IMG/VR virus record: IMGVR_UViG_3300035182_002585
Reading direction: 5' to 3' (one strand)
Length of the DNA stretch: 20,000 nucleotides
Source: an uncultured virus (IMG/VR IMGVR_UViG_3300035182_002585)
Lineage: Duplodnaviria > Heunggongvirae > Uroviricota > Caudoviricetes
A model generated the notes under the pieces. That model had not been told where the DNA came from and searched no databases. It saw nothing but the letters and a program-made list of their open reading frames with translations. Of the stretch, positions 4,267 through 20,000 are shown one piece after another. How positions within the stretch are numbered: the stretch's first letter is position 1; every line of letters begins with the position of its first letter. A program made the translations under genes and the position numbers.

Positions 4267-4740
4267 GGCAGCCCGACCGTCGCGACGACGCGGTAGATGA
4301 GGTCATCCGCCAGACGGCCGGCGTGGTCCGCCCCGTCGGAAGCCTCGATCCAGCGCAGGATGTCCATGTCTTCGTCGGACCTCATCGTCGGACCTCATCG
4401 TCGGACCGTAGACGAGGTGCAGCGGGAGGACCGTCTTGCTCAGGGGCACGTCGACGACGAACTTGCCCGCAGCGAAGTCGTAGGCGAAGCGCTTCGAGGT
4501 GAAGGCTTGGTGCAGGCTGACGAGACGCTGCTGACCATCGATGACGAGGAAGCCTCGCTTCTTGTTCGCGTCGGAGAGGGGGACGCCCCCCACGGTCTTG
4601 ACCTCGGGGAGGATGTCGTAGCTCTCCCACAGAAGCAGCGAGCCCACGTAGTAGCCGCACCACAGCGAATCGAGCAGATGCAGGACTTGCCCGTCGGTCC
4701 ACAACGTGCCCGCGCCGATCTGCTCCACGAGCTGCCGCAC
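4083..4740 (-). pseudogene. DUF262 (GmrS/ParB-like) protein disrupted by a 13-bp tandem duplication
   Basis: Frame 4740: WTDGQVLHLLDSLWCGYYVGSLLLW...LVIDGQQRLVSL. Frame 4385: MFRRLNTAGTRM (FxxxN motif). Removing one 13-nt unit at 4372-4397 fuses the two frames. Confidence 0.8.
4372..4407. repeat. Tandem repeat TCGTCGGACCTCA x2.8
   Basis: Units at 4372-4384, 4385-4397 and a partial unit at 4398-4407. Confidence 0.95.
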
Positions 4741-4932: not shown

Positions 4933-6288
4933 TCACAGCCTCGGGAACTTGTCCAACGCGGTCGGCCCGTGCGACTTGATGACCACCGGGACCCCGAGGC
5001 GCTCCGCTACCTTGGTGTCCATGTTGGTCGAGGGGGTCTGCCACATAATGGGCTTGGCCGTGAACAGGGCCTTCGTGATACGCTCCTGCCGGTCGAGGTC
5101 GACCTTGGGGTCATGGCGGATGCGAGTCGCCCGGTTCAGCTCCCCATCGAAGAGGTTCGGGTCGATGTTGTCATCCAGACGGTAGCCCGTGCAGACGTTC
5201 AGGTCCCCTGCCACGTGGGACAGGCGGTCGAGGCAGGTCAGCGCAAGGCCGTCGACGGGCCCGAGCACATCGAGGGCGTACCGCGCGGCCACGAGGTCGA
5301 GGGCGCCGCTCCGGAAGTTCTGCTGCCACTCCCCGAAGGTGTTGTGGTCGTGCGAGGAACACGCGCCGTAGTGGCGCTCGTCCTCAGTGACGAACGGACC
5401 GGCTCCGTGGCGGGTCGCGTAGGCCCGTAGGACGGCGAGCTTGGTGACCTCCACCGGCTCCGCCTGGAGGGCCTCCAGGGCGTTCTTGAAGGTCGTGTGA
5501 GCCCACGTGGTGTGGGGGTGGAACCCGTAGTCCTCGTCGAGGAGCACGCCTTGGGAGCCCTCTCCAATGATGGTGGCGCCGGCTTCCGTAGCCGTGTGGA
5601 GAACGAGCCCGTCGGGGTCGATGTGGATGCGGGTAGCACACTGGACGAAGCGCTCCACGCAGTCTTCGACGGAGCTTTCGCTCTCCAGGATGTCCCGTTC
5701 CCGCTCGAACGTGGACGACGGAGAGGTGACCTTGAGAAGGGCCCGCATGGCGGACGTGGCCAAGAGCATCCGCTCCCGGACAGCTTCGAGCTTCTCCCTC
5801 AGGGTGCGACGCACGAGGAGGTCCGACGCACGGAGGGCCAGGTCCGGATAGCTCAGCGCGTCCTGGACGGTCTCGCCGATCCCCATACCGCAGCTCCCGT
5901 GACGGTTCTGGCCACGAGCCAGCTCCCGAAGTCGGTTGGCCGCGATGTGGAAGGGCGTGGTGAGAAGAGCGCTTTCTTCGACGTTGATCAGCGAGAGGGG
6001 GTTGTTGACCCCGAGAGTGTGCAGGTGCCTCGCCTCGCTGACCAGCGAGATGGGGTTGAAGAGCATGTGCCGGGTGAGCAACGTCCGCGCTCCGGCCAGC
6101 GTCCCGCTCCCGAACTGAGAGAACGTGTGGTGTTTACCATCAGGCGTTACGACCGAGTGTGCAGCCTGTGCGCCCCCACTGAACCGGAAGACGAGCTTCG
6201 CGTCATATTTTCGCGTCAAAAAATCGGTGGTGGAACCTTTACCCTCATCACCGTACCCCAGACCAACGACGATTAGTGCACGTCCCAT
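4933..6288 (-). CDS. Adenylosuccinate synthetase (PurA)-superfamily protein, divergent
   Basis: GLGYGDEGKG, RFSGGAQAAHS, GMGIGET, EGSQGVLLD..GFHPHTT, RAYATRHGAGPFVTE, LTCLD and SHGP align to PurA motifs; the GATTGR loop is replaced. Confidence 0.92.
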   Translation of the reverse strand: MGRALIVVGLGYGDEGKGSTTDFLTRKYDAKLVFRFSGGAQAAHSVVTPDGKHHTFSQFGSGTLAGARTLLTRHMLFNPISLVSEARHLHTLGVNNPLSLINVEESALLTTPFHIAANRLRELARGQNRHGSCGMGIGETVQDALSYPDLALRASDLLVRRTLREKLEAVRERMLLATSAMRALLKVTSPSSTFERERDILESESSVEDCVERFVQCATRIHIDPDGLVLHTATEAGATIIGEGSQGVLLDEDYGFHPHTTWAHTTFKNALEALQAEPVEVTKLAVLRAYATRHGAGPFVTEDERHYGACSSHDHNTFGEWQQNFRSGALDLVAARYALDVLGPVDGLALTCLDRLSHVAGDLNVCTGYRLDDNIDPNLFDGELNRATRIRHDPKVDLDRQERITKALFTAKPIMWQTPSTNMDTKVAERLGVPVVIKSHGPTALDKFPRL

Positions 6289-6326
6289 GGTTCTTACCCT
6301 AGTCTCCTTATCAAGTAGGGTCTGGT

Positions 6327-6971
6327 ATGACCGCAGGTGTCTGCCCGCAGTGCAAAGTCAACGTTGTCGTCCGCACCAAGAAGTTCGGGACACTCCCACG
6401 ATGCGATGAATGCCTCGAAAAGAACAAGAGGGGTCGCTACGACCGCCGCAACGCCAAGGTCAGAGCCGGTCGGTCAGTGCACCACGCTGCCAACGGTGAG
6501 AGGTACCCTGACAAGTCAACATTGATGGAAGTCGTCTGTGCCTTCTGTGGTGACCCCTTCCAGAGATCCAGTAAGGTGCGGGGTCGAGCAGTATGCCCCA
6601 CTTGCCAACCTAAGGCAGACGAAGAACGTAGAGAGAAAAACAGGAAAAAGGTCCAAGCACTATACTGGCGAGACCCGACAGAGGCCAAACACAAGAGGAT
6701 GCGGAGGACTCTGACTCAGATGGGTTTGAACCCCGACTGGTACGAGAAACAGCCGAAACTATGTGGTATCTGTGGTACAGACGACCCTGGTGAAAAGGGT
6801 TGGCATATCGATCACGACCACACGTGCTGCCCCCCTGGTGTTCGGCAAGGGTGTAGTAACTGTGTGCGAGGACTGCTTTGCAGTAATTGCAACACAGGTC
6901 TAGGACACTTCAAAGACGATCCAGTTAGACTCCGAGCAGCTATCGCTTGGGTACAGCGGTCTCGGGCGTGA
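6327..6971 (+). CDS. Endonuclease VII-type (His-Me/HNH) free-standing homing endonuclease with N-terminal Zn fingers
   Basis: CGICG...HIDHDH...VRGLLCSNCNTGLGHFKDDPVRLRAAI; CxxC pairs in the N-half; visibly lower GC than flanks; opposite strand to the cluster. Confidence 0.9.
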   Translation: MTAGVCPQCKVNVVVRTKKFGTLPRCDECLEKNKRGRYDRRNAKVRAGRSVHHAANGERYPDKSTLMEVVCAFCGDPFQRSSKVRGRAVCPTCQPKADEERREKNRKKVQALYWRDPTEAKHKRMRRTLTQMGLNPDWYEKQPKLCGICGTDDPGEKGWHIDHDHTCCPPGVRQGCSNCVRGLLCSNCNTGLGHFKDDPVRLRAAIAWVQRSRA

Positions 6972-7194
6972 ACTCGACGGTGATGACCCAACGACCGCGC
7001 TTCTTCCCCGTGTCGGGAAGGATGTCGTTCGGGTAAACCCTGCACTCATCGTGTCGTTCGACGCGTTGCTCAGTCGGGAGGCTCCGCTCCTGTGCTTGCT
7101 CTTCCCACGAACGCTTGTCGAAGCAGAAGCACTCACAGTCACCAGAAGCGCAGTAGCCGTCGAGCACGGTGACCTTCTTGACGGTCTCTACCAT
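6940..7194 (-). CDS. Small Cys-containing hypothetical protein (84 aa)
   Basis: ATG 2 nt after the Nudix stop; CASGDCECFC; 3' end overlaps the EndoVII 3' end by 32 nt. Confidence 0.6.
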   Translation of the reverse strand: MVETVKKVTVLDGYCASGDCECFCFDKRSWEEQAQERSLPTEQRVERHDECRVYPNDILPDTGKKRGRWVITVEFTPETAVPKR

Positions 7195-7196
7195 GT

Positions 7197-7703
7197 TCAG
7201 TGTCCCGGCCCGAAGAAGAACCAGCGGGCCGCCTCCGAGTGCGTCGCGAAAGCGAGGTTGATGGGGTCTTCGGGCGAGAGGATGACAATCTCCGAGACTT
7301 CTTCGTTGGGCACGAAGTCGTCAGGAGGCTCGACGGGTTGCGTGACGCCGAAGATGAGCACGCTCGTCCGGGCGGAATTCACCTTCACGTCGTGAAGGGA
7401 GAGCGTCGCTGGACTGACGACGATGCCCGTTTCTTCGAGCAGCTCCCGCGCCCCCGCTTCTTGCCACGATTCCCCCATCTCCATATAGCCTCCGGGAAGG
7501 GCAAGCTGGCCCTTCCCGGGTTCGGTGGCGCGCCGGATCGTCAGCAGGTGTGTCTCCCCGTCAGGGCGAAGAACGGCGACGAGCAGGGCGACGACGGGGA
7601 TGGGGTTGCGGTACGTGACCTGGTGGCACGCGCCGCACCTACGGGGCCAAGCCAGGTGTGTGTGCTTGGCCCCGCAGAACGAGCAGTGATCGTGGAGTCT
7701 CAT
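7197..7703 (-). CDS. Nudix hydrolase with N-terminal Zn ribbon (ADP-ribose pyrophosphatase-like)
   Basis: CSFCG...CGACH..YRNP; intact Nudix box GYMEMGESWQEAGARELLEETGI. Start is ATG 7703 or GTG 7712 (9 nt after TGGTGTA). Confidence 0.92.
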   Translation of the reverse strand: MRLHDHCSFCGAKHTHLAWPRRCGACHQVTYRNPIPVVALLVAVLRPDGETHLLTIRRATEPGKGQLALPGGYMEMGESWQEAGARELLEETGIVVSPATLSLHDVKVNSARTSVLIFGVTQPVEPPDDFVPNEEVSEIVILSPEDPINLAFATHSEAARWFFFGPGH

Positions 7704-7763
7704 CGAAGGCACACCCCGTTGTACACCAGGAAGCATTTCTCGATGTATAACGGGCCTGGGGGT

Positions 7764-9509
7764 TCAGAGACGCTCGACGCTGGACGTGGCGGCGACGGCC
7801 ACCGGAGCCGAACCCGCGACGCGCGAGTGGACGACCGACTTCGCCAGCGGGTCGAGGACGCGACTGAGATGGTTGATTGCATCGGCCGAGGCGCCGATCG
7901 AGCCGAGCCCCTCGCGCAGCCCCGAGCCCATCGTACCCTCGACGAGCCCGACGATGCTGCTGACCGTCTCGCAGATGTGGTCCGCGTGGGCGAGCATGAT
8001 GACATGCTCGGTGCCGAGGAGCGAGACCCACTGCTCGCGGACCCACGGGTCACGGCCGTTGTTCGCGTTGGTGGGGAGCAGGAAGAACACGTGGTACTTC
8101 TCCTGCGCTTCCTTCACGAGGGTCGCCGTGGACACGTCGGCCTCGGCGCCGTCGTCGAAAACGTTCTGCGCTTCCTTGCGCGTGGTCACGTCGTACGGGC
8201 CTTCGTCGCCGATGATGAAGCAGTTACTCGAAGCATAGCCCCACGCAACATAGTTGTGTGTCGTCGTCTGCATCGAGACGACTTCCTGCGGGGGCAGAGA
8301 CTCGATCTTCGCGACGCGATCTCCAGTGCGACTCATCGTAGGAGGGCGTCCCTCCTCACCGTGTTCGTACTTTGCCCACTTCGAGGACAGGATGAGGTCG
8401 AGGAGCTGCTTACGCCGCGTGATCGGCAGCGCGAGGATCTTCACGTACGTCTGGAGACCACCGAGCATGAAGTAGCTGTCCGTCCGATAGTTGAAGTCGA
8501 ACCCAAGCCGCGTCAGCGTCTCTTCGATCCTTTTACAGACTTCCGGGTTGTGGTCTCTGTCCTGCGAAATACCATTCACAGACCCCTCGCCGTCGTAAAT
8601 GCCCGCAAGCCAAGCGGCATCTTCACGAAGCTCAGGCGACAAGGGCTCGATCGGGTCGATGACATGGGAGAGGAGCGCCCCCTTGCCGTATCGATTCGTA
8701 ACCTCGGTGAAGATGTCAACATCCTCCTCGTTGCCCTTCCCGTGGTGACCCGAGAGCCACTGGTGATCTTCAGTACATCGCAGTACACGTCCCGACTCCA
8801 TAGTGACTTGTACGACGTTCTCGGCATGGCGCCTCTGCACCGCTTGCACGGTTGTCACCACGAGAGAACGCCGCCCATTGAGGCGCTCCCAACCCATCAC
8901 CTTGTCACCGGGTACCACCTCTCCGATGGGTTTGAAGGTCTGATCCGCCATCCAGATGGGAGCGTCTGGAGTGTTGCAGTAGCCCTTCTTCTGGCGCTTC
9001 TCGAAGCAGTCGATGCTCGTGTGGCGCGCGGCGAAGTAGAGCGCGAGCTGATAGCTCTCGCGCGGCGGACGCTGCCCACCGCCGCCGCCCTCGATGAAGA
9101 CGCGCGTGAGGTCGTCGTCCATCTCGACGCCGGACTCGAACTGGCCGACCTGGAGCGCCACGCGATCCGAGTGGTAGTCGCCGACCGCACCGAAGAGGAT
9201 CTGCGGATCCGCGACGACGCCCTTGTTGAGCATCCCCATGAGGTTCGGGAGCTGCTTCTGAAGGTCGACGGGGATGCCGCCCATCGAGCCCGTCACGTCG
9301 AAGAAGAAGGCGATGGCGACCGAGTTCGGGTGCGCGGCCGAGTCGCGGCTCTCGCGCGTGACGCCCTTCGGGCTCATCTTGTCGTGCGCCTTGGCGGCCA
9401 CCTTGCCGGTCTTCACCGCGTGGTCGTAGGCGAACGTCGGGGTGTGGGTCGCCTGCTTCGCAGCCTGGCGATCCTTGTAGAAGTCGTCGTTCCAGTAAGA
9501 GCCACCCAT
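7764..9509 (-). CDS. vWA (MIDAS) domain protein containing an intein (581 aa precursor, ~329 aa spliced)
   Basis: AAGGAGGT 5 nt before ATG 9509 (MGGSYWN); FFFDVTGSMG MIDAS motif, GAVGD, GQFES, EGGGGGQ..ESY; KKGY|intein|CFIIGDE. Confidence 0.9.
   Translation of the reverse strand: MGGSYWNDDFYKDRQAAKQATHTPTFAYDHAVKTGKVAAKAHDKMSPKGVTRESRDSAAHPNSVAIAFFFDVTGSMGGIPVDLQKQLPNLMGMLNKGVVADPQILFGAVGDYHSDRVALQVGQFESGVEMDDDLTRVFIEGGGGGQRPPRESYQLALYFAARHTSIDCFEKRQKKGYCNTPDAPIWMADQTFKPIGEVVPGDKVMGWERLNGRRSLVVTTVQAVQRRHAENVVQVTMESGRVLRCTEDHQWLSGHHGKGNEEDVDIFTEVTNRYGKGALLSHVIDPIEPLSPELREDAAWLAGIYDGEGSVNGISQDRDHNPEVCKRIEETLTRLGFDFNYRTDSYFMLGGLQTYVKILALPITRRKQLLDLILSSKWAKYEHGEEGRPPTMSRTGDRVAKIESLPPQEVVSMQTTTHNYVAWGYASSNCFIIGDEGPYDVTTRKEAQNVFDDGAEADVSTATLVKEAQEKYHVFFLLPTNANNGRDPWVREQWVSLLGTEHVIMLAHADHICETVSSIVGLVEGTMGSGLREGLGSIGASADAINHLSRVLDPLAKSVVHSRVAGSAPVAVAATSSVERL
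8223..8978 (-). mobile_element. Intein (252 aa) with LAGLIDADG-type segment
   Basis: Block A CNTPDAPIWMADQTFKPIGEVVPGDKV; block B RCTEDHQWL; WLAGIYDGEGSV; block F/G VVSMQTTTHNYVAWGYASSN followed by Cys+1. Confidence 0.92.
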
Positions 9510-9538
9510 GGGGGACCTCCTTGTCTCTCGTTGCTCCG

Positions 9539-10492
9539 TCAGGTTCTCGGCGGCATGTCGAGAACCCTGTACTTGCGCTCGACGCCCATTCGGCGAAGAA
9601 CCGCCTCCAGTTCGTCGTGCAGAGCCCACGCGTCCGTAGGCCGTCCCGCCTTGTCGTAGACGAGGAACTTCGAGACGAACTCCCGGAACGGGGTCGGGAC
9701 CGTCGAAGGCATCTCGTTCGTCGGGACATCACCCCCGAGCACGGCGACGATGCACTTGCCGACCATGTAGAGGTCGGTCGCCGCAGAGACGGGTTTCTTC
9801 TCCAGGATCTCCGGCGCGTAGAAGACACGGTAGGCGGGCGAGATGGCCTTGACCCGATCTCCGGTCGGGACCGCGTAGCACCAGTCGATGAACTTCGCGC
9901 CATGGCCACGAGGGTCAACCATCACGTGCGGTGGGAGCACCGCCCCATGAACGAAGCCCTTGACGTGAACGAAGCCGATCCCGGCCAGCATGCGGAAGGC
10001 CATCCAGAGCACGTCGAGGTAGTCGAGCCCCTTCGAGTGCGCCTGGCGCACTTCGTCGAGCCCTCGGTACTCCTTGAGGTACGGCAGCACCGTCGCGCGC
10101 CGAGGGCCCGTTGCTGCATCCTGCATCAGGAACGCGTCGAAGAGGCGCGGCAGGTAGCGGTAGAACTTCTCGTCCCCCTGCTCCGGCGGGTAGAGCGTGT
10201 CGAGCACGCGCGCTTCGTTCTCCACAAGGTCATTGTCCTGCGCAGACCGTGCGATCTTGAGCACACCGTCGATGTCCGGGGCGACGTAATGGAAGAGGTC
10301 ACACACGTCCCCTTGCGCGAACCGGTCACCGAGCGTGAAGGCACGCTTCCTCGCGTCCGGCAGCGGCGGCTTGGGCGGCTTGGGCGGCGGCGCAGGGGGG
10401 CCGAACGGGTCTTCCAGGAGGACGGACCAGGCTTCGGGGGCCTCGGGCTCCACAACCGCAGGGTCGGGGAGGATGGGGTTTTTCTTGGGCAT
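9539..10492 (-). CDS. Ser/Thr protein kinase-fold protein (pseudokinase-like) with Pro-rich N-terminus
   Basis: VLKIAR (beta3 Lys), ENEARVL (alphaC Glu), VHGAVLPPHV (catalytic loop without Asp/Asn), IDWCYA (DFG equivalent), YAPE, TDLYMVG, RPT. Confidence 0.88.
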   Translation of the reverse strand: MPKKNPILPDPAVVEPEAPEAWSVLLEDPFGPPAPPPKPPKPPLPDARKRAFTLGDRFAQGDVCDLFHYVAPDIDGVLKIARSAQDNDLVENEARVLDTLYPPEQGDEKFYRYLPRLFDAFLMQDAATGPRRATVLPYLKEYRGLDEVRQAHSKGLDYLDVLWMAFRMLAGIGFVHVKGFVHGAVLPPHVMVDPRGHGAKFIDWCYAVPTGDRVKAISPAYRVFYAPEILEKKPVSAATDLYMVGKCIVAVLGGDVPTNEMPSTVPTPFREFVSKFLVYDKAGRPTDAWALHDELEAVLRRMGVERKYRVLDMPPRT

Positions 10493-10495
10493 GGC

Positions 10496-11311
10496 TCAGA
10501 TCTCGAAGGGCTCGAAGATGAAGTCGCGTTTGATTGCGGCGTCGTAGCGGCGCTTGTCGAATCGGTAGATGGCCGCAGCCGGACCAGGCTTGCTGTTGTT
10601 GGTCTCAACCCCACACTGGACGAGGAAGCCCTTCACGCGCTTGTAGAAGTTGCGGCGGTCGATCTCGCGCATGAGGATCGCCTCGTAGAAGCGTTGAAGC
10701 TGCACGAGAGTGAACTTCGGAGGCAGGAGCTTGAAGGCGATGGGCGTGTAGCGGATTTTCGCCTGGAGCCTCGTGAGAGCCGTCCGAAGGATGTCCGCGT
10801 GGTCGAAGGCGAGCGTCCCCCACGAACCGGTCGGATCCCCGATGAGAGTTGGGTCGTTCCCGTCCCCGTGAACGAAGACCTCGTGACTCGACCGACCTCG
10901 GACCCCCTCCGACCCGATGAAGTTGAACCACCCCACATCAGCCGCATCCGACCCCGCCGTCGCCGTGTGGTCCTTGGTGCGGACCAGCGCGTAGTACGCG
11001 ACGGACACGACACGCCCCCTCGGGTCCCGCCCGGGAGTGGCGAACGTGTAGAGCTGTTCGAGATACTCGATCTCAACGGCCGTCTCTTCTTGCAGCTCAC
11101 GCTGCGCAGCGGCCTCCAGAGACTCGCCCTGGTCGCCGTTGTCCGAGACGTGCACGAAGCCTCCGGGGAGCGCCCAACGTCCCTTGAAGGGGTCGTCAGC
11201 CCTGCGTACGAGAAGCACCTGCAACTCCGGCTTGGAATCGCGCTGGTTGATCCCGAAGACCACGCAGTCGACCGTCAAGGACGGGCGCGGATATTCGTAG
11301 GTGTGCGGCAT
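10496..11311 (-). CDS. nrtR: NrtR-family regulator (Nudix + winged HTH)
   Basis: YPRPSLTVDCVVFG, WALPGGF, RELQEET, LEQLYTF..PGRDPRGRVVSVAY, LAFDH, LLPPKFTLVQLQRFYEAIL..IDRRNF, IYRF. Start ATG 11311. Confidence 0.92.
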   Translation of the reverse strand: MPHTYEYPRPSLTVDCVVFGINQRDSKPELQVLLVRRADDPFKGRWALPGGFVHVSDNGDQGESLEAAAQRELQEETAVEIEYLEQLYTFATPGRDPRGRVVSVAYYALVRTKDHTATAGSDAADVGWFNFIGSEGVRGRSSHEVFVHGDGNDPTLIGDPTGSWGTLAFDHADILRTALTRLQAKIRYTPIAFKLLPPKFTLVQLQRFYEAILMREIDRRNFYKRVKGFLVQCGVETNNSKPGPAAAIYRFDKRRYDAAIKRDFIFEPFEI

Positions 11312-11361
11312 CAGTGTCTCTGTACACCGTTCTAAGCCCCGCATCAGTGTAAGTCAACACC
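11308..11361. promoter_or_regulatory. Two operator-like boxes GCATCAGTGT-N6-ACACC at the nrtR start
   Basis: Copies at 11308-11328 and 11341-11361 (33-bp period), each with a GTGT-N6-ACAC dyad. Confidence 0.5.
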
Positions 11362-15904: not shown

Positions 15905-16137
15905 AGCTTTCGCCCCTCTTCCAAAGCCTTGGTGCACCTAGCGCAACCGCACAGCGCCCACGTCAACACGAAGTACCCCCGTGCGTACGTGCTACAGCCT
16001 GCACACTGGAACCCCAACCGAAGCTCGCGGCCCCCATTCGCAACCGCACGCACGAGTTGCCAGTCGAAGCTACCGCAGGAGCACGGCGCCTCGTGGGCAT
16101 ACATCGGGCGAAGTCCGTCTGGAGGGCCATCGGGCAT
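15901..16137 (-). CDS. Small Cys-rich Zn-ribbon-like protein (78 aa)
   Basis: TGATG overlap with the fibre gene; CSCGS, CAGC, CGCARC. Confidence 0.65.
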   Translation of the reverse strand: MPDGPPDGLRPMYAHEAPCSCGSFDWQLVRAVANGGRELRLGFQCAGCSTYARGYFVLTWALCGCARCTKALEEGRKL

Positions 16138-17642
16138 CACGCAACCCGTTCGAGGTTGAACGAACCGTAGTCACACCCCCACGTGTAGATGCCGTAGATA
16201 CCCGAGTCCATGGCGGCGTTGAGGAAGACGATATCCCCTGCCGTCAGAGAAAGGATACCCACCAGAGAGAAGGGTCCGTGGTTGTTGGCGTCCGTGTTGA
16301 GGGTCCCTGTGCTCAGCGCGTTCAGCTCGTTGATGACGACGCTCACGCGATACGTCGAAGGGTAGTTCGACGCCGAAGTCAGGTGGCCCGTAGCGGTGAC
16401 GCGGTAGGTCCCCGTAGTGACGATCGTGAAGATGCCCGTCGCAGCGTCGACTGTGATCCCACTCGTAGGCGTGGACACGTCGTACGTATCCAGAGCGTGA
16501 GGGCTGGTCGCATAGGCGGGAGTGGCGTTGCTGAACACGAGCGTGCCGTACGTGGGGGTGAGGGGAGGAGTACCCGCAGAGATGCTAGTGACGAGCCCCT
16601 TCGCATCCACCGTGACGTTCGCGTTCGTGTAGGTTCCGGCTGCCACTCCGTTGTTCGTGAGCTTGCTCGACGGGATGGATGCGGCTGCGATCTTGGTCCC
16701 GCTGATGTTCGCGGTGGCTGACACGCTCACATCCGTGATGGCGTTGGCCGCCATCTTCAACGCGGTGACGGAGGCATCCGCCATTTTGAGGGTCGTGACA
16801 GCGTTGTCCGCCATCTTGAGTGTCGTGACAGCGTTGTCCGCCATCTTGAGTGTCGTCATGGCCCCGTCGGCCACTTTGACGGTGGTGATGGACGCGTCTG
16901 CGAGTTGCGTGGTCGTGATGGTGCTGGGAGCCATCTTCGTGGCCGTCACCGCCCCATCAGCGATCTGTGTCGCTGTGATGGTGCTGGGAGCCATCTTCGT
17001 GCCCGTTACCGTCCCATCGGCGATCTGTGTCGCTGTGATGGTGCTGGCCGCCATCTTAGTGGCCGTCACCGCCCCATCGGCGAGCTTGGCGGTTGTAATG
17101 GACCCATTCGGAATCGGCGGCACCGTAGGGTCAACGGGGTCCCACACCTTCGTGGTACCGTTGAAGGCGAGGGTCTGACCATTCGTCGGCAGACCGTCCA
17201 CCGGGAGCCGCGATGCACGACGCAGGATGACCTCGACGCCCTTCCACCCCTTGGTAGTGTCGGGCCGCCCCGTCGGCCGGTAGGTCCCGTACCGTACGCC
17301 CCCGTCCAAGGGTGATGTCGTGTCCCCCGACGAGTCGTACCCAGGAAGGATGTCTCCCGAGTCCTCCGGGACGATGAAGTCGAGAGCCGCGAGCAGGGCG
17401 TTGTCGGACACCCGGCGCAGTTGTACGGGGTAGCACCCCGACATGTCCGGCGTGAACGTCGCCGTCGCACCGGGAGCCCCCAGGTTCCCGGTGGTCACAG
17501 CAGAACCACTCGGCGCATCCGTGAGGATGTACTGACCCGTGGTGCTACCGTCGTTCGAGACGGTCACCACCGAGCCGATCACCCCGATCCTCGACTCGCC
17601 CGCGGGCGCTGCGACGGCGTTTTGCGTGAGAATGAGCTTCAT
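16137..17642 (-). CDS. Fibre/spike-like virion protein: Ig/PKD-like N-domain, decapeptide-repeat shaft, C1q/BclA-C-like tip
   Basis: TDAPSGSAV..ATFTPDMSGCYPVQL; 12 decapeptide repeats; AAGTYTNANVTVDAKGLVTS; TGIFTIVTTGTYRVTA..ILSLTAGDIVFL..SFNLERVA. Confidence 0.8.
   Translation of the reverse strand: MKLILTQNAVAAPAGESRIGVIGSVVTVSNDGSTTGQYILTDAPSGSAVTTGNLGAPGATATFTPDMSGCYPVQLRRVSDNALLAALDFIVPEDSGDILPGYDSSGDTTSPLDGGVRYGTYRPTGRPDTTKGWKGVEVILRRASRLPVDGLPTNGQTLAFNGTTKVWDPVDPTVPPIPNGSITTAKLADGAVTATKMAASTITATQIADGTVTGTKMAPSTITATQIADGAVTATKMAPSTITTTQLADASITTVKVADGAMTTLKMADNAVTTLKMADNAVTTLKMADASVTALKMAANAITDVSVSATANISGTKIAAASIPSSKLTNNGVAAGTYTNANVTVDAKGLVTSISAGTPPLTPTYGTLVFSNATPAYATSPHALDTYDVSTPTSGITVDAATGIFTIVTTGTYRVTATGHLTSASNYPSTYRVSVVINELNALSTGTLNTDANNHGPFSLVGILSLTAGDIVFLNAAMDSGIYGIYTWGCDYGSFNLERVA
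16740..17099 (-). repeat. 12 x 30-bp coding repeats, consensus (I/V)TxxK(M/L/I)ADxA
   Basis: ITTAKLADGA VTATKMAAST ITATQIADGT ... VTTLKMADNA ... VTALKMAANA; near-identical 30- and 60-bp DNA copies. Confidence 0.92.
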
Positions 17643-17720: not shown

Positions 17721-18854
17721 ATGGAAGACCTCTTTCGCCGCGTCGCGACCCGCTACAGCATGGCCCTACGGGTGGCAGAGAGGTTCGCCGCGAAGCGGCC
17801 CATGAAGCCCGAGAAGCTCCAAGAGTTGATGGTGAAGCTCCGGAAAGGCGCCGGCACCAGCAACAAGATGGAGGTCCTCGACCAGGTGTTCGGCACCCTC
17901 GGGGGTTGGGTCTGGGAGGACATGCTCTATCTGAGCCCGAAGGCGTACAACGACGAGAACCGGTCCTACTACTCCAACGCACACCCCGGGAACGTCAAGG
18001 CAACGTGGGACGAGGCCAAGGCCCGTGAAGTCGTCCACCTCCCCCACAACGACCAGCTCAGCGCCTCCGACAAGTACAAGTCGTTCTACATGAACGTGGG
18101 GGAGATCGAGCCCAGCAAGCACAACCCGGGGCAGACCGGCTTCTACTACCAGGAGTGGCGTGTTTCCGAGGGTACGCGCGTTCGGGCCCCGAACGGGGCC
18201 TTCTTCGAGACGGACAAGTCCCTCCAGGGGTTCCTCAACGAGTACCCCTCCAATCTGTGGAGCTTCAAGAAGGAACGCTTCACGGACTGGCTCAAGAAGA
18301 GCACCCCGTTCTTTGACCAGATCAACGCGAGGCTCGGTCTGGAGTCCTACGAAGAGGAGCGGGCGAAGGCCCGCACACCGCCTCGAACGCGTGAAAACAC
18401 GGGAACCTGCCCCTGCTGCTGGGGGAACTTCAAGCTGACCCCGCACACGAAGCACGGCAAGGACAAGTCCCTTCCTGGCATGATCCTCCACGGGTACAAG
18501 CGGCCGGGCACCGGCTACATCCACGGCAACTGCTTCGGCCAGGACTGGCCGCCCTTCGAGCTGAGCCCCGAGGGAACCATCGCTTGGGCCAAGGTGGTGG
18601 AAGGCTGGAAGGAACGTGCCGAGGAAGCCCTCAAACGCCTGGAGAGGCGCGAGGATACGGTCCTCGTGTTCGGGATGGGCCGGACCTACGAGAAGGACAA
18701 GATGACACCCCACGAGTGGGGGCGGAAGTACGACGAGCGGATCGCGGATCAGAAGTCGACGATCAAGCAGATGACCCAAGACCTCGAACGCCTGCACCAC
18801 GCAATCTCGACGTGGAAGCAGAAGCCCCTGCCCGAGGCCACGCCCACCGTCTAG
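17721..18854 (+). CDS. Hypothetical phage protein (377 aa) with Cys/His module and coiled-coil C-terminus
   Basis: Probable start ATG 17721; RRVATRY..RVAERF; TGTCPCCW..MILHGYKRPGTGYIHGNCFG..PFELS; very high GC3. Confidence 0.8.
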   Translation: MEDLFRRVATRYSMALRVAERFAAKRPMKPEKLQELMVKLRKGAGTSNKMEVLDQVFGTLGGWVWEDMLYLSPKAYNDENRSYYSNAHPGNVKATWDEAKAREVVHLPHNDQLSASDKYKSFYMNVGEIEPSKHNPGQTGFYYQEWRVSEGTRVRAPNGAFFETDKSLQGFLNEYPSNLWSFKKERFTDWLKKSTPFFDQINARLGLESYEEERAKARTPPRTRENTGTCPCCWGNFKLTPHTKHGKDKSLPGMILHGYKRPGTGYIHGNCFGQDWPPFELSPEGTIAWAKVVEGWKERAEEALKRLERREDTVLVFGMGRTYEKDKMTPHEWGRKYDERIADQKSTIKQMTQDLERLHHAISTWKQKPLPEATPTV

Positions 18855-19171
18855 TCGATGCTGTACGGGGACACGCCGTCCGCGATGCCCGCAAGCACCT
18901 GTGCGTGGCACAGGAGGCGCCCCTGGAAGCCCTCCTTGGGCCGGCACCAGCAGCCTAGGACCTTCCCCGTCAGCTCCGCCTGCACGAGCGCTACGAGGCC
19001 CGGCTGCGCGAGGAGCCACGTCTCGTAGCGAGCGATGGCCTCGGCACGAGACGCGACCCGAAACTTGGCCGCTGTCCCGGCCTTATGGCTGTAGGGGTTC
19101 CCGTAGATCGACGGTCGGCCGACGTACACGTCGTGAGGCTCAGATTTGTGGACTACGCGGGTCCCCGCCAT
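18851..19171 (-). CDS. DUF4326 family protein
   Basis: VVH..HDVYVGRPSIYGNPY..SRAEAIARYETWL..ELTGKVLGCWC.P..CHAQVL. Confidence 0.88.
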   Translation of the reverse strand: MAGTRVVHKSEPHDVYVGRPSIYGNPYSHKAGTAAKFRVASRAEAIARYETWLLAQPGLVALVQAELTGKVLGCWCRPKEGFQGRLLCHAQVLAGIADGVSPYSID

Positions 19172-19441: not shown

Positions 19442-19660
19442 CTATCGCATAAGTGCGAATTCAGTGACCTTTTCGACCAACTTCTCCGTGGGTTCGAGCC
19501 CGTTTAGTAGGAGAACCCGGGTGGGCCCGAAGGCGTGCAGAAGACGGTAGGCCACGTGAAGGAACTGCACACGGTAGTGTGTGAGGTCGGCGACCGTGTG
19601 GTACTTCTCGTTGAGGCCCTTGCCGGCCTTGGCGAGGCGCTCCCGAAAGTTCGACCCACC
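19442..19660 (-). pseudogene. Orphan C-terminal fragment resembling a nucleoside-monophosphate (dTMP-type) kinase tail
   Basis: Start-less frame NFRERLAKAGKGLNEKYHTVADLTHYRVQFLHVAYRLLHAFGPTRVLLLNGLEPTEKLVEKVTEFALMR* (TAG at 19442-19444); the family resemblance is weak. Confidence 0.4.
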
Positions 19661-19664
19661 TCGT

Positions 19665-20000
19665 GTCGGGGCGGTCGGACGCGGCCACGATCACGACGGA
19701 ATCGGTGCCGAGGTCCGCTACGGAGATGATCTGCTCTTCGACACCCGCCTCGCGAACGAGGTCGATACCACAGAACCCCGCGTTGAAGATGCCGAGAGTG
19801 ACGAGCTGCGGGATGGCGCGCGCCTTGACGACCCGCGCCGTCACGTTCTTGTGCTCCGACGTGCAGTGGTAGGTGCGATCGTCGCCGACCTTGATCCCCA
19901 ACTTCTGCACGGAAGTGAAAGCCGCCCCGAAGAGGCGACCCTTGGGGAGAGCCAGGACCGAAGGACCGTTCGCGTAGAACGTGGGCGGTCGGATGGGTAG
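19665..20000 (-). pseudogene. ATP phosphoribosyltransferase (HisG)-like domain, open at the window edge and truncated at ~19665
   Basis: VLALPKGRLF..VVKARAIPQLVTLGIFNAGFCGIDLVRE..VADLGTDSVVIVAA matches the HisG N-terminal half; no ATKYP-like segment follows in any frame I read. Confidence 0.7.

Follow-up and report, generated by a model that had tools for sequence, protein, structure and literature searches.

A conserved module of a pseudokinase, a vWA-fold protein and a rewired PurA paralog in bacteria and large phages, with a possible role in protein-nucleotide tagging

Organization of the locus

We analysed a stretch of 20,000 nucleotides from an uncultured virus of the Caudoviricetes (IMG/VR record IMGVR_UViG_3300035182_002585; hereafter "the window", i.e. 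the whole stretch), in particular a gene cluster at positions 4,933 to 11,361 that includes genes for a protein kinase-like protein, a protein with a von Willebrand factor A (vWA) fold, and a paralog of the adenylosuccinate synthetase PurA. An initial annotation had described six co-oriented open reading frames (ORFs) interrupted by an endonuclease VII (EndoVII) gene on the opposite strand, and all of these ORFs, the gaps between them and the assigned domains are present in the sequence. The analyses described below show that the cluster belongs to a real, widespread and undescribed module of bacteria and large phages. The module has three core genes rather than six, and its rewired PurA, together with a vWA protein that almost always starts with glycine, suggests, as far as residue patterns can tell, protein-nucleotide tagging of a new kind rather than synthesis of adenosine monophosphate (AMP).

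The core genes are all on the minus strand and encode the pseudokinase (9539..10492; protein kinase fold with a Pkinase domain match, HRD changed to HGA), the vWA-fold protein (7764..9509; phrog_2971, unknown function) and the PurA paralog (4933..6288; Adenylsucc_synt match). The vWA protein has an N-terminal arm (residues 1 to ~60) and a DxTGS motif resembling a metal-ion-dependent adhesion site (MIDAS). Its start region (9492..9522, minus strand) comprises a Shine-Dalgarno motif at 9516-9522, the start codon and the sequence Met-Gly-x-x-x-Trp, with the Gly2 codon at 9504-9506. Upstream of the kinase gene lies the accessory gene nrtR (10496..11311, minus strand; Nudix plus winged helix, PF00293 and PF21906). 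Its reading frame is open from 11344, and the start of a homolog indicates that translation probably begins at 11311. The remaining minus-strand genes are a standalone Nudix hydrolase (7197..7736; NUDIX match, N-terminal Cys4 ribbon) and an ORF of 84 amino acids without a domain match (6940..7194). The gaps are 3 nt between the nrtR stop (10496) and the kinase start (10492), 29 nt between the kinase stop (9539) and the vWA start (9509), and 2 nt between the Nudix stop (7197) and the start of the small ORF (7194). An Rfam search of the window returned zero matches. The PurA-like protein is on record on a contig of 620,031 bases, and the window has a tail-fibre-like gene as well as the EndoVII gene; it most likely belongs to a very large phage.

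Conservation of the module

Neighbourhood surveys were seeded with the PurA-like and, reciprocally, with the vWA family. The first comprised 24 viral loci together with 80 bacterial ones, the best among 586 confirmed stretches; the bacterial loci are mostly from Actinomycetota with some Chloroflexota. For the second, the vWA alignment was used as the query, and 496 out of 519 viral and 527 out of 598 metagenome stretches were confirmed; taking the best 80 from each group yielded 159 new loci. Both surveys showed that the genes co-occur far beyond chance. A vWA gene was found in 77 of the 80 bacterial and 22 of the 24 viral PurA-seeded loci, and in all loci with at least 3.5 kb of upstream sequence (70/70 bacterial, 21/21 viral). 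Conversely, where a vWA-seeded locus extends 2.5 kb or more downstream, a PurA paralog is located no farther than 5 kb from the vWA gene in 107 of 109 cases (135/159 overall). The kinase gene is present in 17/24 viral and 68/80 bacterial PurA-seeded loci. Of the 70 bacterial loci that reach 3.5 kb or more upstream, 59 have the genes in the same order as the window (nrtR-kinase-vWA-purA-like), as the initial annotation had surmised for bacterial neighbourhoods. The conserved core thus consists of the pseudokinase, the vWA protein and the PurA paralog, and the pairing of the latter two is nearly obligate.

The other genes of the proposed six-gene system are not part of this core. No homolog of the 84-aa ORF was found among 281 loci, and a standalone Nudix gene is present in only 13 of the 281, several of them redundant. 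When the 85 vWA-seeded loci flanked by 3 kb on either side are counted, the kinase was found in 74, NrtR in 13 and the small ORF in none.

The module is not restricted to uncultured viruses. Named-phage records matching the PurA-like and vWA proteins numbered 201 and 200 for Mycobacterium, 10 and 10 for Rhizobium, and 6 and 6 for Vibrio, respectively; cluster C mycobacteriophages carry the triad. It is also found on plasmids of Rhodococcus, Agrobacterium and Acetobacter, with an adjacent Nudix/NrtR-type gene in two of the three. The vWA family alone comprises 2,447 clusters at 50% identity.

Further indications of a link between the vWA protein and the PurA paralog were considered. Their identity matrices correlate (r 0.92), which was not taken as evidence because shared ancestry accounts for it. 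A covariation analysis between the proteins (195 pairs, effective number of sequences 109) gave only scattered pairs of variable columns. A 776-aa vWA-PurA fusion (P0278) was given no weight, since it is a single record and its linker appears to be out of frame, i.e. a frameshift. None of the PADLOC 2.0 profiles for catalogued anti-phage systems matches the vWA or the PurA-like protein, and only generic kinase and Nudix matches were obtained. In two phages the region several genes ahead of the triad encodes, respectively, a protein that resembles Ro/TROVE by eye (L007:2481-4106) and a polynucleotide kinase (L105:4978-5499), a possible RNA-repair context that is not recurrent.

The PurA paralog has kept the catalytic residues and lost the aspartate pocket

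The structural model of the paralog has a PurA fold (predicted local distance difference test score, pLDDT, 93.9; template modelling score, TM, 0.80 to 1cg3). The P-loop is kept, and in an alignment of 102 family members the residues Asp14 (100, with 2 gapped), Lys17 (100), His44 (101), Gln246 (102), Thr261 (100) and Asp354 (102) are conserved; they align to E. coli PurA D13, K16, H41, Q224, T239 and D333. We take these residues to have the roles that they have in PurA, with D333 presumably specifying guanosine triphosphate (GTP). In contrast, the aspartate pocket has been replaced: V273 is His in 102/102, T300 is Trp in 96/102 and T301 is Gln in 101/102 sequences, R303 is deleted, and R305 is Phe in 91/102. 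T300 and T301 are presumably carboxylate-binding, and we take R305 to belong to the same site. N38 has become Gln and T129 Cys (101/102 each), K331 is replaced, and the cross-dimer R143 is not conserved (His in 65, Tyr in 12, other residues in the rest of the 102 rows). The five canonical PurAs from genomes that also carry the paralog have all kept TTGR and Val273.

Several of the residues compared have described contacts. In H. pylori PurA, the equivalents of D13, N38, T129, T239, V273, R303 and the partner's R143 contact inosine monophosphate (IMP), as described in the text available for PMC11571797; the mapping to E. coli numbering is our own. R303 is reported to contact both aspartate and the 2'-OH of IMP, and the tip of the aspartate loop is conserved even in PurZ (both in the part of PMC8342488 that was accessible). 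Because the residues for phosphoryl transfer are kept and the aspartate pocket is lost, phosphorylation of O6 is probably retained, and the amine substrate is probably not aspartate. The environment of the nucleotide at the 5' and 2' positions also appears to be changed.

All five bacterial genomes tested have a canonical purA elsewhere in addition to the paralog, and the paralog stays far below the equivalog cut-offs for PurA (TIGR00184, 159.6 versus 395.55; NF002223, 185.8 versus 402) and for PurZ (NF038379, 29.6 versus 300). In a FastTree of 18 sequences a long branch separates the five canonical PurAs from the paralog family; the tree is small and unrooted and was not used for conclusions about origin. 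The family is a third, large functional branch of the PurA fold. To our knowledge, enzymes of this fold make only adenylosuccinate or the precursor of the Z base. NC_054716.1 (L105; RefSeq) and PHROG 1211 label the family as a PurZ-like "2-aminooxy adenylosuccinate synthetase" although Asp13 is kept. One paralog (P0280) has a LAGLIDADG intein of its own, inserted beside the T239-equivalent motif.

The vWA protein starts with an invariant glycine

None of the 69 vWA members examined matches a Pfam vWA family, and a profile search of PDB sequences gave no match (best E 0.078). The fold became apparent from the model of an intein-free orthologue (L001; pLDDT 94.9), for which the best structural match is the integrin beta I domain (Z 15.6, root-mean-square deviation 3.0, 193 aligned residues) and the top 50 rows are all of vWA type. 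The MIDAS-like motif is a variant, DxTGS in place of DxSxS..T..D, with the Asp conserved in 98/98 sequences, as is a later Asp in a GDE motif (98/98).

The members of the family share the N-terminus Met-Gly-x-x-x-Trp/Tyr/Phe, in which residues 3-5 vary. Gly2 is present in 96 of 98 alignment rows and in 232 of 236 unique rows, the remaining four being gapped. In an independent scoring of the vWA-seeded loci, the codon after the start encodes glycine in 156 of 157 (2 of the 159 could not be scored). It is also found in 139 of 150 representatives of the 50% clusters; the other 11 are seven N-terminal fragments, three proteins with the motif behind a longer called start, and one deviating sequence. 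For comparison, the PurA paralog has Gly2 in only 11 of 120 cases. Position 1 is sometimes encoded by GTG or TTG preceded by a Shine-Dalgarno motif, and it is thus a start codon and not an internal Met; the scan pattern itself required Gly, and it was used for the start codons alone. The motif is kept in distant copies from Vibrio, Rhizobium, Agrobacterium and Acetobacter, including Vibrio and Rhizobium phages with PurA paralogs that are only 32-35% identical. The arm also carries conserved Arg residues. Two loci deserve mention: L178 has tandem vWA genes (3926 and 5001), both with the same N-terminal motif, and the vWA start annotated for mycobacteriophage Cane17 precedes the Met-Gly motif by 12 codons.

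In several phages, mini-genes of 27-94 aa just upstream of the vWA gene encode a vWA-like Met-Gly leader followed by a low-complexity tail. A systematic scan found them at 3 of 241 nearby starts (L003:6040, L010:6535, L226:4918) versus 14 of 20,049 starts elsewhere (Fisher p 0.001). Targeted inspection of 10 loci revealed more, in L005/L195, L116/L197, L113, L115/L023 and L196, with positions L005:8648, L197:4661, L113:4794, L115:349 and L196:4780. Because the mini-genes encode a similar leader, the N-terminal peptide is a portable unit; this is easier to reconcile with a substrate or a recognition leader than with an arm of purely structural function, and the mini-ORFs are possibly extra substrates or decoys. 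Six longer vWA matches contained no N-terminal fusion, which is a weak test.

The kinase is a pseudokinase

The catalytic Asp of the HRD motif is replaced by Ala184 in 82 of 84 kinase sequences, while Lys79 (81/84), Glu93 (82/84), His189 (83/84), the metal-binding Asp203 (79/84) and other invariant residues are kept. His189 is located at the position of the catalytic-loop Asn. Two alphaproteobacterial copies lack the metal Asp as well. The view of the initial annotation that both the kinase and the ligase are altered at catalytic or substrate positions therefore holds across both families. In the relatives the kinase has a J-domain-like N-terminal segment (below the Pfam cut-off), whereas the kinase of the window has a Pro-rich stretch instead. 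In eight of nine genomes chosen because they lack a nearby kinase gene none was found, and one has a remnant; Gly2 of the vWA protein is retained where the kinase was not found. The kinase is thus a core gene that is dispensable in some lineages.

NrtR and the NAD/ADP-ribose context

The NrtR of the window matches NF050029 with an E value of 6e-43, below the cut-off, and the Nudix Glu residues are kept in 70-71 of 73 members of its family. Two operator-like palindromes of the form GTGT-N6-ACAC are found at 11347..11360, overlapping a -35-like hexamer, and at 11314..11327, directly upstream of the likely nrtR start. The window has three such sites, two of them no more than 50 bp from that start; 0.195 are expected per mononucleotide-shuffled window. 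The promoter at the first palindrome was read by eye, and a sigma-70 scan did not list it (1 site found versus 0.6 expected). Paired GTGT-N7-ACAC sites are present in L001, L003, L010, L094, L113, L119 and L142; by the same rule, most actinobacterial loci have none. The core NrtR operator is given as GT-N7-AC in the main text of PMC2330246, so that the spacer in the window is one base shorter, and the same paper reports that ADP-ribose frees two tested NrtR members from DNA.

NrtR is present in 7/24 viral and 68/80 bacterial PurA-seeded loci; of the 70 bacterial loci that extend 3.5 kb or more upstream, 65 have it. Genes for NAMPT (nine loci, one phage clade) and NADAR (four loci) were found among 121 loci. 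In the vWA-seeded set, by contrast, NrtR was found in 13 of 85 loci, so that the initial proposal of an ADP-ribose-responsive module lacks support in that form: the link to nicotinamide adenine dinucleotide (NAD) and ADP-ribose is a real one, but control by NrtR is an accessory. Nor can the standalone Nudix protein, which had been assigned the removal of an adduct, be an obligatory eraser, since it is present at only 13 of 281 loci. A DUF4326 gene lies elsewhere in the window (18851-19171, minus strand); this domain is tied to ADP-ribose-processing domains in jumbo phages, according to the main text of PMC7824862.

Mobile passengers

Two elements of the cluster are mobile passengers and not part of the module core. 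An intein of 252 aa (8223..8978, minus strand; Hint/intein match) occupies residues 178-429 of the vWA protein, from Cys1 to Asn with a Cys at +1, and Cane17 has a similar intein inserted at the same vWA site. The free-standing EndoVII gene (6327..6971, plus strand; Endonuclease_7 match) has a GC content at third codon positions of 0.58, versus 0.75-0.94 for the module genes. A related population (run X4) lacks both: in contigs of this run, 2 letters separate 8220 from 8979, and 108 letters separate 6195 from 6961. The 84-aa ORF is partly covered in this population and adjoins the purA-like gene there. Among the substitutions listed for this population, which leave out 245 further rows, at least 40 fall in the four main genes, and one, upstream of 11311, was excluded from scoring; 36 of the 39 scored are at third codon positions (15/16, 11/11, 4/5 and 6/7), showing that the four genes are under purifying selection.

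A possible mechanism and its alternatives

In PurA, the attacking group is the alpha-amine of aspartate. An N-terminal glycine offers an alpha-amine without the carboxylates that are bound by the lost Thr/Thr/Arg, and transfer onto Gly2 of the vWA protein is therefore the reading we favour, tentatively and at slightly less than an even chance: the paralog would join C6 of an inosine nucleotide to the N-terminal glycine amine. The kept residues indicate that the paralog probably binds GTP-Mg and a 6-oxopurine nucleotide (candidates are IMP, deoxy-IMP (dIMP) or a 5'-extended inosine nucleotide) and would phosphorylate O6 as PurA does. The attacking amine would plausibly be that of Gly2, bared by removal of the initiator Met, and the product would be an N6-linked adenine-nucleotide-protein adduct. 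Trp/Gln/His/Phe in place of Thr/Thr/Val/Arg would suit an uncharged Gly-x-x-x-Trp peptide. Further steps are more conjectural: the adduct might switch MIDAS-dependent binding by the vWA protein, or its formation might covalently remove inosine-type nucleotides, and the J-domain pseudokinase might conceivably be a non-catalytic scaffold or a nucleotide sensor. NrtR, where present, would repress the operon at the operator-like sites until released by ADP-ribose, its presumed ligand, which would tie the module to NAD-cleavage stress. The suggestion in the initial annotation of a nucleotide adduct on a protein such as the vWA has thus gained specific support from the invariant glycine, while the chemistry of the adduct is extrapolated from residue patterns. 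Whether the module as a whole is a sink, or else a switch, that acts covalently on deaminated-adenine signals in NAD/ADP-ribose conflict, fixing inosine-type nucleotides via C6 to the N-terminal glycine of a vWA carrier and of decoy mini-gene peptides, in soil bacteria and in large phages including all C1 mycobacteriophages, is a possibility that we regard as rather doubtful.

Several observations count against transfer onto Gly2. Each scan contributed its best 80 loci, and the resulting set is skewed to Actinomycetota and near-duplicates. L017, a complete 70-kb virus, has the paralog and a truncated kinase without a vWA gene, an arrangement that looks like decay, and L253, a 75% complete vWA phage with an in-frame TAG in the match, has no paralog. 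The mini-gene test was devised after one case had been seen, and two of its three matches are close relatives. The arm is well ordered in the vWA model (pLDDT 86 at residues 1-10), and the glycine could be structural, or the arm could be a docking or allosteric peptide. Two vWA proteins have residues ahead of the glycine, i.e. six extra residues before the motif in L267 and Val-Lys in P0239. A complex prediction with the L001 PurA paralog, vWA residues 2-311, guanosine diphosphate (GDP) and Mg (score 0.02, mark 0.32) bears neither way.

The most serious alternative, possible but on balance unlikely, is that the paralog uses a small amine such as ammonia, glycine or a polyamine to produce a modified purine nucleotide in free form, and that the vWA arm serves only for docking or activation, possibly in place of the subunit that supplies R143. 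PurA is known to accept hydroxylamine, and bulky residues occupy the aspartate pocket of the paralog. The cross-dimer Arg, which PurA needs according to the text available for PMC11571797, is lost, and the vWA arm has conserved Arg residues; NAMPT (9/121) and NADAR (4/121) recur as neighbours. However, the neighbourhood clusters contain no conserved amine-supplying or downstream enzyme, and a small-amine substrate by itself leaves the glycine as obligatory first residue unexplained. Were the glycine motif instead a target or ligand of the pseudokinase, as in nucleoside monophosphate transfer (NMPylation), or purely structural, the PurA paralog would act elsewhere. In its favour, the kinase keeps Lys, Glu, other invariant residues and mostly the metal Asp, and has a His where the catalytic-loop Asn would be. 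We nevertheless consider this view improbable, since Gly2 stays where the kinase was not found (eight of the nine chosen genomes) and two alphaproteobacterial kinases lack the metal Asp.

A PurZ-like pathway for a modified base in phage DNA would fit the frequency of the family in large phages, the name given to it by RefSeq and PHROG, and the loss of R303, which drops the 2'-OH contact as PurZ does (PMC8342488, accessible part). It is nonetheless very improbable. Asp13 is kept in 100 of the 100 rows with a residue, whereas Ser replaces it in all 147 phage PurZ proteins treated in section 24 of PMC12884076; NF038379 scores far below its cut-off; the neighbourhoods, searched within 5-6 kb only, have no recurrent DatZ, MazZ, DUTase, DpoZ or polymerase cluster; and hundreds of copies are chromosomal. 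Least probable of all is an ordinary, divergent adenylosuccinate synthetase for auxiliary AMP synthesis. The PurA fold and the catalytic Asp and His are retained, and host PurB could complete the pathway, but the aspartate-binding loop that even PurZ conserves (PMC8342488, same part) is replaced throughout the family, every PurA cut-off is unmet, the five genomes have a canonical purA elsewhere, and the vWA partner is nearly obligate. The initial annotation was therefore right in considering AMP synthesis unlikely. Its argument from a missing purB fails: purB is absent from all five related phages, but PurZ phages rely on host enzymes for the later steps (PMC8342488, same part), and we rejected the argument.

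Relationship to known systems

The paralog shares with PurA (PF00709, TIGR00184) the fold, the P-loop, D13/K16/H41/Q224/T239 and D333, but it is a second copy beside a canonical purA, tied to a vWA gene and with a replaced aspartate pocket. PurZ and PurZ0 of 2-aminoadenine synthesis are also phage-borne PurA paralogs with a changed substrate and set a precedent for re-purposing of the fold. However, PurZ changes the nucleotide and keeps aspartate, whereas the paralog keeps Asp13 and loses the aspartate site, and the neighbours differ. The "PurA-like adenylosuccinate synthetase" of cluster C1 (Bxz1 gp250 and kin) belongs to the same family, with ~40% identity and with the kinase and vWA genes just upstream; Cane17 differs from the window in that nrtR is absent from the stretch examined. 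The accessible parts of PMC2771037 and PMC9476963 note the C1 kinase and PurA-like genes as annotations, without function or operon. NrtR regulons (PMC2330246, main text) resemble the locus in the Nudix-winged helix regulator, the paired GT..AC palindromes upstream and, in one phage clade, a co-located NAMPT gene; that main text does not mention purA or adenylosuccinate.

The TerY-P triad consists of a vWA protein, a PP2C phosphatase and a Ser/Thr kinase. The likeness to it drawn in the initial annotation is loose: a vWA gene also adjoins a kinase-fold gene here, but the kinase lacks the catalytic Asp and the constant partner is the PurA paralog. No PP2C gene is present in the window, and no recurrent PP2C cluster was seen among the neighbourhood representatives examined. 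Pseudokinase folds such as NiRAN and SelO carry out NMPylation, in the case of NiRAN/nsp9 at the N-terminus, and Mom of phage Mu makes N6-glycinamide adenine. NiRAN/nsp9 is thus comparable in that a free protein alpha-amine accepts a nucleotide, and Mom in its purine-C6-glycinamide linkage, although the enzymes and the chemistry are unrelated in both cases. We know of no PurA-fold enzyme that modifies a protein.

We found no description of this gene set in a literature search that left subscription journals largely uncovered and did not include supplements. The main texts of PMC9503650 and PMC7824862 do not mention PurA, the available part of bioRxiv 2025.10.22.683976 deals with the PurA/PurZ split only, and the parts available of PMC5050341 and bioRxiv 2025.01.02.630785 treat C1 inteins without naming the vWA protein. 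At present, about 200 cultured mycobacteriophages and many Actinomycetota have the family wrongly annotated as PurA or PurZ. Should the N-terminal glycine model be correct, it represents a new protein modification, and the enzyme would be a peptide-nucleotide ligase that might find biotechnological use. If the model is wrong, it is still the case that false calls of "auxiliary purine synthesis" or a "Z-genome" are removed from many phage annotations.

Other features of the window

A stand-alone GmrSD N-terminal (DUF262-type) domain is encoded immediately downstream of the PurA paralog (4303-4740, minus strand). Three further minus-strand regions were noted: a weak match to HisG, the ATP phosphoribosyltransferase (19461-19910; E 3e-4, below the cut-off), which is unusual in a phage-like element; a tail-fibre-like protein with repeating 15-residue units (16137-17642); and an M23 peptidase gene (748-1227), inside which the third GTGT-N6-ACAC site lies at 898, probably by chance.

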